Virus record (IMG/VR): IMGVR_UViG_2617270961_000003
Strand: one strand, 5' to 3'
From: a virus
Lineage: Duplodnaviria; Heunggongvirae; Uroviricota; Caudoviricetes
Length of the DNA stretch: 4,141 bases
The notes below the pieces were generated by a model. It was not told the origin of the DNA. It did no database searches and saw only the letters and a program-made list of their open reading frames with translations. Below are positions 1-4,141 of this stretch, piece after piece (position 1 is the stretch's first letter; every line of letters begins with the position of its first letter). The position numbers and the translations under genes were made by a program.

Positions 1-118
1 AGACGATGACGTCACTGCCCGGCTGTATGCGCGAGGTTACCGACTGCGGCCTGAGTTTTTTAAGTGACGTAAAATCGTGTTGAGGCCAACGCCCATAATG
101 CGGGCAGTTGCCCGGCAT
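1..118 (-). CDS. insB: IS1 InsB, 5' portion (partial, cut by the window edge; continues at 3746..4141 if the ends are joined)
   Basis: ATG at 118..116 followed by CCG GGC AAC (M-P-G-N), the recalled InsB N-terminus MPGNSPHYG. It is in the -1 frame relative to insA and overlaps the insA 3' end. Confidence 0.75.
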
Positions 119-312
119 CCAACGCCATTCATGGCCATATCAATGATTTTCTGGTGCGTACCGGGTTGAGAAGCGGTGTAAGTGAACTGCAGTTGCCATG
201 TTTTACGGCAGTGAGAGCAGAGATAGCGCTGATGTCCGGCGGTGCTTTTGCCGTTACGCACCACCCCGTCAGTAGCTGAACAGGAGGGACAGCTGATAGA
301 AACAGAAGCCAC
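37..312 (-). CDS. insA: IS1 InsA (transposition inhibitor / N-terminal part of the InsAB' transposase)
   Basis: 91-aa [46 protein letters not shown]... is the IS1 InsA sequence as I recall it, with a zinc-finger-like CxxC...CxxC N-terminus. Confidence 0.95.
55..63 (-). other. IS1 programmed -1 ribosomal frameshift motif (A6C) joining insA to insB'
   Basis: Window 55..63 gttttttaa is the reverse complement of TTAAAAAAC at the 3' end of insA, the known IS1 frameshift site for InsAB' production. Confidence 0.8.
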
Positions 313-344
313 TGGAGCACCTCAAAAACACCATCATACACTAA

Positions 345-367
345 ATCAGTAAGTTGGCAGCATCACC
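345..367 (-). repeat. IS1 terminal inverted repeat (IRL), 23 bp
   Basis: Window 345..367 atcagtaagttggcagcatcacc is the reverse complement of GGTGATGCTGCCAACTTACTGAT. It is an imperfect inverted match to the other terminus at 3731..3753. Confidence 0.9.
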
Positions 368-506
368 TTAAGTTGCATCTCAATTGTTTCTTCAGCGTAA
401 ACAGAGTTTTTATACAAACTGACACTCTGGGTATCATAGTGTAGTTTTTACGATTGTAAATATCCTGCATGCAGGAACTCATCCTTTTGGATGATATCGC
501 ATACAA

Positions 507-1466
507 TTAATTTACCATCAGTCTTAGAGCCAGTTCGTCCGGATAGGGATCGAAGTAATTCTGTGTAAGCAAGTAATCATTAGGATACTCACCCAGATAA
601 TGCTTCAGCAGAGTCAACGGCGCAAGAAGAGGTAATGTGCCAGAACGATAGTTAAGTATAACCTCGCTCAACTCTTTACGCTGGCGTGTACTTAAGTAGT
701 TACTAAAATACCCCTGTATATGCATCAGCACATTCGTGTGATTTTTACGTGATGCAGGTTTTCTGAGAATCGCCATCAGCTTATCACGATACACCTCAAA
801 GTATGATTCAAGGTCCGCCCACTCGTGTATTGCAGCCACAAATGGTCCCATATCTTTATAGCCTGCCTGACTATGCGCCAACAACTGAAGCTTATAACGA
901 CTATGAAAAGCTAATAACTCTCTTCTTGATAATTTCTCCTTGTAAAGGTGATTGAGCTCATGCAAAGCAAAAACTCTTTCAACAAAATTCTCACGAAGCA
1001 CTGGATCATGTAATCGCCCATCCTCTTCAACCGGTAGCCAGGAAAACTTTTCCATCAAAGTGCTCGTAAATAGTCCCACTCCATCTTTACGACCTCGATT
1101 ACCATTTTCATCATAGACACGCACGCGCTCCATGCCACAGCTGGGAGATTTAGCACAAACCACAAACCCCGATACATCCTTTAATTTGTCCATATAAGAA
1201 CGACTAAACTCTGTCATTCTCTCTGTCACATCCTCATTCTGGTCGTGGCTGAAACACATCCGTATATTTCCTTGCGTCGAGCGCACAAGACGTAGAGCAG
1301 GACGCGGAACTGGCAGCCCTATAGCCATTTCCGGACATACTGGTCTGAATGTTACCCATTCCACTAATTTGTCCATTAAAAAGTCAGTTCTTTTGTGACC
1401 ACCATCAAAACGAACAGCAGAACCGGCCAAACAACCGCTGATTCCAATCACAGGTTTTTTTATCAT
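507..1466 (-). CDS. DUF523/DUF1722 fusion protein (TudS-like thio-nucleobase desulfidase-type N-terminal domain, YbgA-like C-terminal domain)
   Basis: 319-aa ORF. The N-terminal third has DUF523/TudS hallmarks: GISGCLAG (Cys12), RPVCPEMAIGLPVPRP (Cys44) and KSPSCG (Cys104, Cys110). The C-terminal half looks like the YbgA/DUF1722-type helical domain. A strong Shine-Dalgarno (GGGGGAG) sits 5 nt upstream of the ATG at 1466. Confidence 0.8.
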   Translation of the reverse strand: MIKKPVIGISGCLAGSAVRFDGGHKRTDFLMDKLVEWVTFRPVCPEMAIGLPVPRPALRLVRSTQGNIRMCFSHDQNEDVTERMTEFSRSYMDKLKDVSGFVVCAKSPSCGMERVRVYDENGNRGRKDGVGLFTSTLMEKFSWLPVEEDGRLHDPVLRENFVERVFALHELNHLYKEKLSRRELLAFHSRYKLQLLAHSQAGYKDMGPFVAAIHEWADLESYFEVYRDKLMAILRKPASRKNHTNVLMHIQGYFSNYLSTRQRKELSEVILNYRSGTLPLLAPLTLLKHYLGEYPNDYLLTQNYFDPYPDELALRLMVN

Positions 1467-1658
1467 ATTCTCCCCCTTGACTAATTCATTAACACATAAA
1501 CTGTGTAGTGCACGGAATAAATTGCCTTTCTGGCGTCATCACTGACAATTTTTCTGTTATGGACTATTCCTAATATAGTATGGAAGTTCTTTAAGTGATC
1601 GGTCGTAATCATCTATCTTTCATACTTACTCTCAACTATCAAAAGTACAGGATTTATT

Positions 1659-2183
1659 ATGAAGTTATGGCCTGTGTTGACTGGCATTGCACTCTCTTTC
1701 ACTCTTATAGCATGTAAGGCCCCGACACCACCTAAAGGTGTGCAGCCGATTACAAATTTTGACGCCAACCGCTACCTCGGAAAATGGTATGAAATAGCTC
1801 GCCTCGAGAACCGGTTCGAACGTGGTCTGGAACAGGTCAGCGCTACTTATGGAAAACGGAACGACGGAGGGATTCGTGTACTTAACCGTGGATACGATCC
1901 AACGAAAAATAAATGGAGCGAGAGCGAAGGTAAAGCATACTTTACTGGAGATACTAAAACTGCAGCATTGAAGGTTTCGTTTTTTGGCCCCTTCTATGGT
2001 GGCTATAATGTAATCAAACTGGATGATGAGTATAAGTATGCTCTTGTCAGTGGTCCGAACAGAGAATACCTATGGATTCTGGCAAGGACCCCAACTATTC
2101 CAGATAAAGTAAAAGCAGACTATGTGCGAACCGCTCAAAAGTTGGGATTCAATGTCAATGAATTATTATGGGTTAAACAATAA
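1659..2183 (+). CDS. blc: Outer-membrane lipoprotein Blc (bacterial lipocalin)
   Basis: 174-aa ORF with a lipoprotein signal peptide and lipobox (LIAC, Cys19). Long collinear similarity to E. coli Blc as recalled (NFDAxRYLGxWYEIAR, FERGLExV, SEGKAYFTG, AALKVSFFGPFYGGYNVI, YLWIL.RTPTI), but clearly divergent from it, roughly two-thirds identity by eye. Confidence 0.9.
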   Translation: MKLWPVLTGIALSFTLIACKAPTPPKGVQPITNFDANRYLGKWYEIARLENRFERGLEQVSATYGKRNDGGIRVLNRGYDPTKNKWSESEGKAYFTGDTKTAALKVSFFGPFYGGYNVIKLDDEYKYALVSGPNREYLWILARTPTIPDKVKADYVRTAQKLGFNVNELLWVKQ

Positions 2184-2211
2184 AATCCCTACCCGAAATA
2201 ATACTTATTAG

Positions 2212-2240
2212 AAAAAAACCAGCCTTTGGGGAGGCTGGCT
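2212..2240 (-). terminator. Rho-independent terminator for minus-strand transcription (candidate tR' of the Q-controlled late unit)
   Basis: On the minus strand: GC-rich stem CCAGCCT / AGGCTGG (2238..2232 and 2225..2219), 6-nt loop CCCCAA, then a T7 run (2218..2212). On the plus strand the hairpin has no following T-tract, so it is unidirectional. Confidence 0.55.
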
Positions 2241-2297
2241 AAATCAGGAAACAAGCTGTTATATGATAATAACTACGTTGCGATTCCAACATTTAAA

Positions 2298-2326
2298 ATG
2301 TTAGACTAATGACAATCAGACAGCAA
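2298..2326 (-). promoter_or_regulatory. Candidate sigma70 promoter immediately downstream of Q (PR'-like late promoter)
   Basis: Minus strand TTGCTG (2326..2321), 17-nt spacer, TAACAT (2303..2298). Position just after the Q stop and before the terminator matches lambdoid PR'/qut architecture. Sequence match to consensus is only moderate. Confidence 0.3.
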
Positions 2327-2338
2327 CTTTTCCTTTAA

Positions 2339-2716
2339 TTATTTCGAACAATCAGCATCCATCTCCAATCGGAGATCCAACACCATCAGCATACCCTCCA
2401 CTACGCCCTCAGCTTTCTGAAGCATCCTGCCAACCCAACAATCAGATCGCCCATGCTTACGTGCAAGCGCCATAAAAGTCATGCCGCCGACATAATAGTC
2501 CACCAATAAATCATGCAAATCGCTGTTGTTCTTTTTCAGACGGGCCATGCACCCGCAAATGATCATCGCGTCATCGTCACAACATTGTGGGCGAGATTTT
2601 ACTTTTGAAGGAATTAATCCCTTAAAACCGGCGGCAATGGACGACCAGGTCACATCTTCATGATTATTAGCCGCCCACGCTCCCCAACGCTCAAGAACCA
2701 TCTGAATATCACGCAT
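2339..2716 (-). CDS. quuD: Phage antitermination protein Q (DLP12 QuuD-like)
   Basis: ORF-track protein contains [35 protein letters not shown]...[16 protein letters not shown] (a Cys-rich zinc-binding motif), matching the DLP12-type Q antiterminator as recalled. I place the start at the first ATG (2716..2714), which has GGAG 7 nt upstream; the track's 2731 start is a TTG and less likely. Confidence 0.8.
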
Positions 2717-2801
2717 CAACTTACTCCACAAAACTCAGACCAGAACGCCAATTACAAGCAAAAATCAACAAAACAGTATTAGTTGATTGTTATCTCTGAC
2801 T

Positions 2802-2939
2802 TCATACTCCTGCTCCTGTCAGTGTTTTGGCGTAATTCTTCAGTATTCGGTAATCGGTCAAAACAGAACCGGGGAAACGATATAAGCGCAGACGCCCCCA
2901 GCGGTGGCGAAGAAGTTCTGCCATATTAAACTCAAACAT
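2802..2939 (-). CDS. ylcG: Small ORF (45 aa) between rusA and Q, position-equivalent to DLP12 ylcG
   Basis: My own translation: [45 protein letters not shown]. Its ATG (2939..2937) overlaps the rusA stop (TGATG), and GGGG lies about 8 nt upstream. It is below the ORF-track size cutoff. The identification rests on synteny and size from memory. Confidence 0.45.
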   Translation of the reverse strand: MFEFNMAELLRHRWGRLRLYRFPGSVLTDYRILKNYAKTLTGAGV

Positions 2940-3301
2940 CATTCATTCCCCATTTCGGTGATGGTCAGTTCCAGCCTCCCACCTTTGGTAACAGGCATCT
3001 TCACAACGCGGTAATCAACGACCTGAGCATCATCCAGCCAGAAACCTGCTTTAGTGAGTGCGTCAAAAGCGGCTTTTTGCAGATTATCCAGGTCACGGCG
3101 ACGGCGATCCGGCATGTGGCACTCAATGCGGATTTTCACAGGCATAGTCAGGCCGATATCCAGCATTGCGTTTTTAATGATTCGGGCGACGTTATCGCGG
3201 TATGCCTGCCCCTCTGCGCTGACGTGCGTGCGCCCGCGATTATGGCGGTAATAGCGATTATTGCTCGGAGGCCAGGGTAATGTGATGCTGTAGGTATTCA
3301 C
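2939..3301 (-). CDS. rusA: Crossover junction endodeoxyribonuclease RusA (Holliday junction resolvase), lambdoid prophage type
   Basis: 120-aa [40 protein letters not shown]...[10 protein letters not shown], essentially identical to E. coli K-12 DLP12 RusA as recalled. The start codon in this sequence reads GTG and overlaps the upstream ybcO-frame stop (GTGA). Confidence 0.95.
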
Positions 3302-3426
3302 GCCTTAATAACCCCCTCTTTCAGCCAGATAACCTGTGTTCTCGCCATACCTTCCAGCGCGCATTCTTTTGCATATGCAGCATCGACTTGCTTGGCATGC
3401 CCTTTACCGGCAATCTTCTGTATGCG
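3298..3426 (-). pseudogene. ybcO: ybcO-like remnant: only the C-terminal ~42 codons remain open upstream of rusA
   Basis: Minus-strand frame ending at TGA (3300..3298) translates ...[40 protein letters not shown], matching the recalled YbcO C-terminus. The same frame is closed by TAG codons at 3429..3427 and 3435..3433, and no ORF of full YbcO size exists. Confidence 0.5.
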
Positions 3427-3507
3427 CTAAACCTAGATAGAATCCACTCTGTGCACATTGAAGCCCGCTCTATGCTTCCTTTCAGGTATTGAAGGGATTG
3501 AGATGGG

Positions 3508-3744
3508 CTAAGCATTATTGGCCTCCTGCATCAGGAGAAAGACAATCATGGAGGCGCGGAGAGGTCTGGTATCAAATATTGGGCTTACGCCTTTTGCATC
3601 CACACACCATTCAGTTAACTGGTCTAAGATAGAAATCCTGTATTTCTCAATAATCGGCCATGAAGCGCTCGGATCATTGCAGTAGTCAGGCAAATGATTT
3701 AATGGCTCAAAAGTTGTATCAGCATTTCCGGGTAATGACTCCAA
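3508..3744 (-). CDS. Hypothetical 78-aa ORF of unknown family; 5' end lies inside the IS1 terminal repeat (possible IS1-truncated gene or hybrid ORF)
   Basis: ORF-track frame starting at TTG 3744..3742, which is inside the IS1 inverted repeat. It is in the same frame as the ybcO-like remnant but separated from it by amber stops. I recognise no family. Coding status is uncertain. Confidence 0.25.
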
Positions 3745-3753
3745 CTTATTGAT
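3731..3753 (-). repeat. IS1 terminal inverted repeat (IRR), 23 bp
   Basis: Window 3731..3753 ggtaatgactccaacttattgat is the IS1 right-end repeat and pairs imperfectly with IRL at 345..367. Confidence 0.9.
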
Positions 3754-4141
3754 AGTGTTTTATGTTCAGATAATGCCCGATGACTTTGTCATGCAGCTCC
3801 ACCGATTTTGAGAACGACAGCGACTTCCGTCCCAGCCGTGCCAGGTGCTGCCTCAGATTCAGGTTATGCCGCTCAATTCGCTGCGTATATCGCTTGCAGA
3901 TTACGTGCAGCTTTCCCTTCAGGCGGGATTCATACAGCGGCCAGCCATCCGTCATCCATATCACCACGTCAAAGGGTGACAGCAGGCTCATAAGACGCCC
4001 CAGCGTCGCCATAGTGCGTTCACCGAATACGTGCGCAACAACCGTCTTCCGGAGCCTGTCATACGCGTAAAACAGCCAGCGCTGGCGCGATTTAGCCCCG
4101 ACATAGCCCCACTGTTCGTCCATTTCCGCGCAGACGATGAC
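3746..4141 (-). CDS. insB: IS1 InsB, 3' portion (partial, 5' end lies beyond the window edge / at 1..118)
   Basis: Track [51 protein letters not shown]...[12 protein letters not shown] matches the C-terminal ~125 aa of IS1 InsB as recalled. The frame stays open to the window end. Confidence 0.9.

Follow-up and report, generated by a model that had tools for sequence, protein, structure and literature searches.

The insertion sequence IS1 produces a direct target duplication of 9 bp, rarely of 8 bp, which flanks one copy of the element. In the composite transposon Tn9, two IS1 copies form direct repeats, and direct IS1 repeats around a passenger can in principle transpose with it as a unit, or allow its excision or amplification by recombination. 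Insertion sequence copies without a target site duplication (TSD) have been explained by recombination between two such copies or by deletion of adjacent DNA; in the same work every ordinary movement left duplications and every deletion-associated one left none (PMC11708052). Here, we analyzed a 4,141-nt stretch of DNA (hereafter the window) from the IMG/VR virus record IMGVR_UViG_2617270961_000003, which is bounded on both sides by parts of IS1. We hold with good confidence that it derives from a defective lambdoid prophage of the type located between ybhC and ybhB/bioA, in which two direct, minus-strand IS1 copies lie 3363 bp apart and the 9-mers next to them represent two independent target sites. 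The left copy (copy A) would be a simple insertion, and the right one (copy B) likely a deletion or recombination joint.

Using IS1A of Escherichia coli K-12, annotated as a 768-bp mobile element, as reference, the window was found to start in the middle of a first IS1, to leave it through the left inverted repeat (IRL), to cross 3363 bp (368..3730) and to enter a second IS1 through the right inverted repeat (IRR). The IRL-proximal half of the left copy (1..367, minus strand) is the reverse complement of IS1 nt 1-367 and differs from IS1A at one position, the rest of this copy lying past the left edge of the window. Correspondingly, the IRR-proximal part of the right copy (3731..4141, minus strand) is the reverse complement of nt 358-768 with two mismatches, and its remainder lies past the right edge. 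The canonical tips, GGTGATGCTGCCAACTTACTGAT... and ...ATCAATAAGTTGGAGTCATTACC, are present. The 23-bp IRL occupies 345..367 with its tip at 367, and the 23-bp IRR 3731..3753 with its tip at 3731, so that the imperfect terminal inverted repeats of about 23 bp typical of the family (GGTGATGCTGCCAACTTACTGAT / GGTAATGACTCCAACTTATTGAT) occur at both tips, albeit on halves of two copies. The coding content agrees with the IS1 family as well: insA (37..312, minus strand) matches the Pfam InsA Zn-ribbon (E 1e-21) and HTH_Tnp_IS1 (E 5e-31) domains, the A6C motif of the -1 frameshift, TTAAAAAAC, can be read directly as the reverse complement of approximately 54..62, and the 3' part of insB (3746..4123, minus strand) matches DDE_Tnp_IS1 (E 8e-74). 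The element itself is thus an ordinary IS1. As both pieces are on the minus strand, the copies are in direct orientation, and the IS1 halves lie outside the flanking sequences, not between them.

Prophage DNA begins at the IRL tip of the left copy with the 9-mer TTAAGTTGC (368..376) and ends, directly in front of the right copy's IRR tip, with the 9-mer GCATTTCCG (3722..3730). Compared directly, the two have 2 of 9 bases in common, a chance-level value (about 2.25 expected). Shifting either boundary by up to 6 nt and allowing for duplications of 8 or 9 nt did not rescue a duplication, the best case yielding no more than 6 matching bases, and neither 9-mer has a second occurrence on either strand of the window. 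Moreover, the same breakpoints, to the base, follow independently from alignment to the corresponding empty sites of strain STEC309.

The segment between the two IS1 pieces is present in many IS1-free E. coli chromosomes in one collinear piece, with 100% coverage and 99.8–99.9% identity; at least 80% of it is covered in 627 genomes, and it also occurs in viable lambdoid phages at 94–99% identity. Since the segment is uninterrupted in the IS1-free genomes, both IS1 junctions correspond to sites 3363 bp apart in one lambdoid prophage, at positions 4001 and 7363 of the STEC309 locus. There, the prophage continues without interruption to the left of the segment into a helix-turn-helix (HTH) regulator gene and the essD/rrrD lysis genes, and to the right into the rest of ninX, ninE, a methyltransferase gene, ninB, ren, P, and O. 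In related prophages, xis and int adjoin ybhC at one end of the element, and ybhB/bioA are found at the other.

A sequence-only reading of the window had set the IS1 boundaries at 367 and 3731, and the IS1A alignment and the STEC309 empty site prove these to be exact. It had further traced the mismatched 9-mers to different original target sites and preferred two bracketing copies, or an IS1-mediated deletion or recombination, to a single simple insertion. These proposals are borne out by the spacing of the two sites in IS1-free genomes and by the arrangement of an IRL half on the left and an IRR half on the right in the same orientation; shifted boundaries with identical 8–9-nt flanks, which it had named as the contrary case, were looked for and did not appear. 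What does not hold is the presentation of the mismatch as an anomaly. A duplication flanks a single copy, whereas the 9-mers compared here each border a different IS1 copy on its inner side and therefore need not match; because non-identity is the null expectation for two unrelated 9-mers, the mismatch also carries no statistical surprise. It follows from the geometry and is not in itself evidence of rearrangement. Where a window ends in insertion-sequence halves, flanks that do not match are a product of this layout, and the finding is of little importance beyond annotation.

For the left junction, one relative provides the complete picture. In strain ET650, an IS1 occupies precisely this position and is flanked left and right by TTAAGTTGC, a perfect 9-bp duplication, and the empty site in STEC309 contains TTAAGTTGC once. 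The ET650 copy is thus a textbook simple insertion. It is identical to the window copy over all 367 visible nucleotides, including a T at IS1 nt 262. Copy A most likely arose in the same manner, when an IS1 transposed in the ordinary way into the AT-rich spacer that separates the genes for the HTH regulator and the YbgA-like protein. This insertion would have duplicated TTAAGTTGC, with 368..376 as the inner copy; the partner is most probably located just past the window, where the left IS1 ends. The left target stretch has an A+T content of 67%, compared to 56% for the whole segment, and further IS1 junctions were found at approximately -7 bp (Z226-5) and -70 bp (MB1) from it. As a separate observation, the left-site IS1 of ET650 (locus L003, 2600..3367) is a mosaic: its nt 1-461 are identical to the IS1A-like sequence of the window, and nt 462-768 contain 29 mismatches. 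This pattern suggests recombination or conversion between diverged iso-IS1 elements.

The right junction has a different history in the one relative that shares it. A 300-nt probe spanning this junction gave a single-piece match (300/300, 100% identity) in one of 5,426 genomes, that of strain PSS-08-2. The complete IS1 of PSS-08-2 is bordered by GCATTTCCG towards ninX and by CAGTGCCGT at its opposite end and thus has no duplication; GCATTTCCG occurs once in the PSS-08-2 locus (L005), and the CAGTGCCGT flank lies about 250 bp upstream of a small open reading frame (ORF) that is followed by xis and int. Compared to the intact sister prophage of strain 104, PSS-08-2 is missing 12,084 bp, which comprise the 5' part of ninX, ninE, ninB, ren, P, O, cII, cro, cI, N, gam, bet, exo, and the region on through lprI. 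None of the 5,426 complete genomes contained the partner junction expected had IS1 simply inserted at the right site (IRL tip followed by GCATTTCCGTAATACC...). A search for a simple insertion at the outer PSS-08-2 site (...CAGTGCCGT followed by the IRR tip), which would tell the ancestral end, likewise gave none. Copy B, which interrupts ninX, most likely marks the joint of an IS1-associated deletion or of a recombination between two IS1 copies. The event would have removed the early genes of the prophage, and copy B would then be without any duplication. With neither partner junction of a simple insertion found, the joint may stem from adjacent deletion or from IS1–IS1 recombination, and from either end. 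A partner of GCATTTCCG was found nowhere.

Other IS1 copies in this prophage fall into the same two classes. Four simple insertions have perfect 9-bp duplications, namely the left-site copy of ET650, a copy in the lipocalin gene of GN02270, and the copies in 51489 and MINF_9A. Five single copies lack a duplication (HeN100, PSS-08-2, the ninX copy of GN02270, MB1, and the second copy of ET650), and all five border missing or rearranged DNA. The HeN100 copy resides in ninX 58 bp from the right site and is likewise joined near xis/int. On the STEC309 locus (L002), the junctions form two clusters, at approximately 3930..4001 and 7363..7421, equivalent to about 368 and 3730 of the window and the DNA just beyond these positions, and both spots contain 67% A+T. 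The left cluster consists of three junctions spread over some 70 bp on the upstream side of the ybgA-like gene (window/ET650, Z226-5, and MB1), the right one of three junctions within 58 bp in ninX (window/PSS-08-2, GN02270, and HeN100).

Several observations weigh against the interpretation as two in situ events of the proposed kinds. Firstly, the right IS1 half of the window and the PSS-08-2 copy are separated by 4 differences over 411 nt. The shared right junction could reflect common descent and subsequent conversion among IS1 copies, or alternatively a recurrent hit at a preferred site. The latter is favored by GN02270, whose IS1 in ninX lies 1 bp from the right site in the opposite orientation, has no TSD and is associated with a 291-bp deletion; a junction this close points to a hot spot, and the right copy of the window could be a simple insertion after all. 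Secondly, the T at IS1 nt 262, considered as a private marker of shared descent with the ET650 insertion, is weakened in this role by its presence in 2 of 12 full-length comparison copies, those of ET650 and a distinct IS1 of Z226-5 located 7 bp away. Thirdly, the outer flanks of the window's own genome lie outside the window, and we infer that they resemble those of the relatives. Fourthly, exact 30–31-nt patterns of both junctions had zero matches in the GTDB representatives, IMG/VR, and the JGI metagenomes, and a megablast search of the whole window against PLSDB and phage records retrieved no record with both junctions. Finally, the window begins and ends with the same 10 nt, which a simple linear excerpt does not explain. 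Candidate genomes with an apparent window coverage of 92–99% (H41-H55) were also inspected and rejected, as their IS1 is located elsewhere in or near the segment and not at both junctions.

The identical ends provide the basis for the strongest alternative. Positions 1..10 equal 4132..4141 (AGACGATGAC), and the window can consequently be closed to a circle of 4131 bp with exactly one IS1. This identity may stem from a cyclic contig, from an outward-primer product or from the way the window was cut. The window could accordingly be a circularly permuted form of a circle consisting of one IS1 and the 3363-bp segment, either as an assembly artifact or as a real recombination product, but we regard this as unlikely. 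If there was a circle, its most likely form is the artifact, where a segment between direct IS1 repeats creates a cycle in the assembly graph. The two IS1 pieces do join, via the 10-nt overlap, to exactly one 768-bp element, which has two mismatches to a real single copy in Z226-5, and two independent cuts would come this close to each other on IS1, 10 nt or less, with a chance of only about 2.7% (21/768). However, an overlap of 10 nt is unlike the k-mer overlap generally expected of common assemblers, and a linear piece cut from one IS1 to the next would read identically. Furthermore, no circular record of this kind was found in PLSDB, IMG/VR or the metagenomes, the segment contains no replication function according to Pfam, and each junction occurs separately in chromosomes that have the prophage in situ. 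The less likely form is a real product: homologous recombination between direct IS1 copies could yield an excised circle or a tandem amplification, as in IS1-flanked r-determinants. An actual 4131-bp extrachromosomal circle or tandem amplification unit, composed of IS1 and the Q-rusA-lipocalin-ybgA segment and formed by IS1–IS1 recombination in a decaying prophage, appears very unlikely to us; if true, it would be the IS1 counterpart of the translocatable units of IS26 or of r-determinant amplification. Even a circle leaves both junctions derived from two different target sites.

It is also highly improbable that the two IS1 copies and the segment constitute a Tn9-like composite transposon that moved as a whole and carried Q, rusA, and the lipocalin and ybgA-like genes to another location. 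As in Tn9, two copies of the same element in direct orientation bracket a passenger, with an IRL half on the left and an IRR half on the right, each on the minus strand. In NCTC9080, moreover, the same prophage contains a genuine IS1 composite with corA as its cargo. The whole unit, on the other hand, was not found in more than one genomic context: no record in any searched collection holds both junctions, and each junction was encountered alone, where the segment runs on into the neighboring prophage genes. The segment ends, too, are a spacer and the middle of ninX in an otherwise collinear prophage, as two in situ events would give. A single IS1 insertion whose duplication was misjudged through wrong boundaries or has decayed by point mutation has next to no probability, and apart from the caveat in the sequence-only reading nothing speaks for it. 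The boundaries are exact, at most 6 of 9 bases match after any shift, 3363 bp separate the flanks in genomes without IS1, and the IS1 halves are outside and not between them. The STEC309 empty-site alignment refutes this reading.

The NCTC9080 composite deserves description in its own right. In locus L006 (4623..7864), two inverted IS1A copies form a unit that carries corA and ysgD, interrupts the prophage's lipocalin gene and is flanked by an 8-bp duplication, GTTTTTTG; here a chromosomal housekeeping gene was mobilized by IS1.

The bracketed 3363 bp (368..3730) correspond to the nin/Q/moron region of a lambdoid prophage. Next to copy A lies a YbgA-family gene (507..1466, minus strand), for which the STEC309 RefSeq label and the Pfam matches (PF04463, E 3e-40; PF08349, E 2e-40) indicate a 2-thiouracil desulfurase/DUF523 and a DUF1722 domain. 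It is followed by a moron on the plus strand, a Blc-like lipocalin lipoprotein gene (1659..2183; Lipocalin_2, E 7e-44, and STEC309 annotation), and on the minus strand by the gene for antitermination protein Q (2339..2731; Phage_antitermQ, E 2.5e-51), whose RefSeq start is equivalent to position 2716. In lambdoid phages the late terminator tR', on which Q acts, is found at the position of a terminator-like hairpin of 9 pairs with a T-run (2217..2240, minus strand) that a consensus scan identified about 100 nt downstream of Q. This hairpin is a possible candidate for a tR'-type late terminator, in a scan whose total number of sites was not above that of shuffled sequences. Further genes on the minus strand are a small gene of the ylcG family (2802..2942), transferred from the STEC309 annotation (L002 6435..6575, offset 3633) and without a Pfam match, the Holliday-junction resolvase gene rusA (2939..3301; RusA, E 2.6e-23, and STEC309 annotation), and a DUF1364 (ybcO-like) remnant (3298..3387), which is annotated in STEC309 as a pseudogene without its N-terminus. 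This remnant and about 120 nt of non-coding sequence part rusA from ninX (3298..3520), and the same scar is present in IS1-free genomes. The matches of ET650 and of phage IdasGreatGrand end at approximately 3381-3387. From these alignments, a mosaic boundary of lambdoid nin regions is placed at about 3387, where matches of genomes with the ybcO-ninE-ybcN type of nin region end.

The last gene before copy B is ninX, of which the 3' 223 nt remain (3508..3730, minus strand), matching only positions 46-114 of the 114-position Phage_P22_NinX profile. The right IS1 removes the 5' 119 nt of this 342-nt gene, which is whole in STEC309 (L002 7141..7482), and ninX is thereby inactivated. Two chimeric ORFs on the minus strand extend across the junctions: one of 78 aa (3508..3744) comprises a C-terminal NinX fragment with a TTG start inside the IRR, and the other of 47 aa (363..506) has its stop codon in the IRL tip. 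Searches by exact sequence for these two and for a 61-aa version with an alternative start found no called gene on record.

Overall, the picture is the well-known one of a defective lambdoid prophage being eroded by IS1, and the locus adds one more example in which this happens by both insertion and deletion. As the Q-rusA-moron block lies between direct repeats, homologous recombination could delete or amplify it.

Compared to the IS1 elements of E. coli K-12 (IS1A/IS1B-type iso-forms), the two halves, which together cover all 768 nt with three mismatches to IS1A, agree in their 23-bp inverted repeats, insA, the A6C motif, the insB DDE domain and, as seen in a relative, the 9-bp duplication at the left target site; they differ in that the window shows half of each copy. 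The single IS1 copies of PSS-08-2, HeN100, GN02270, and MB1, which have unrelated 9-mers on their two sides and DNA missing compared to intact relatives, resemble the described IS copies without TSD (PMC11708052), and the right copy of the window is placed in this group by inference from a relative. The prophage shares the gene order ninX, the ybcO remnant, rusA, ylcG, Q, morons, and essD/rrrD with DLP12-like lambdoid prophages at the ybhC/bio site, where the integrase gene also adjoins ybhC and ybhB/bioA are at the other end. Here, the lipocalin gene, the YbgA-like gene, and the HTH regulator gene serve as the morons that separate Q from the lysis genes; in their place, PSS-08-2 and strain 104 have a porin gene. 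The direct IS1 copies around a 3.4-kb passenger recall Tn9 and the IS1-flanked r-determinants. This resemblance to Tn9 is one of form only, as there is no sign that the unit ever moved, and its passenger still matches the native prophage neighborhood.

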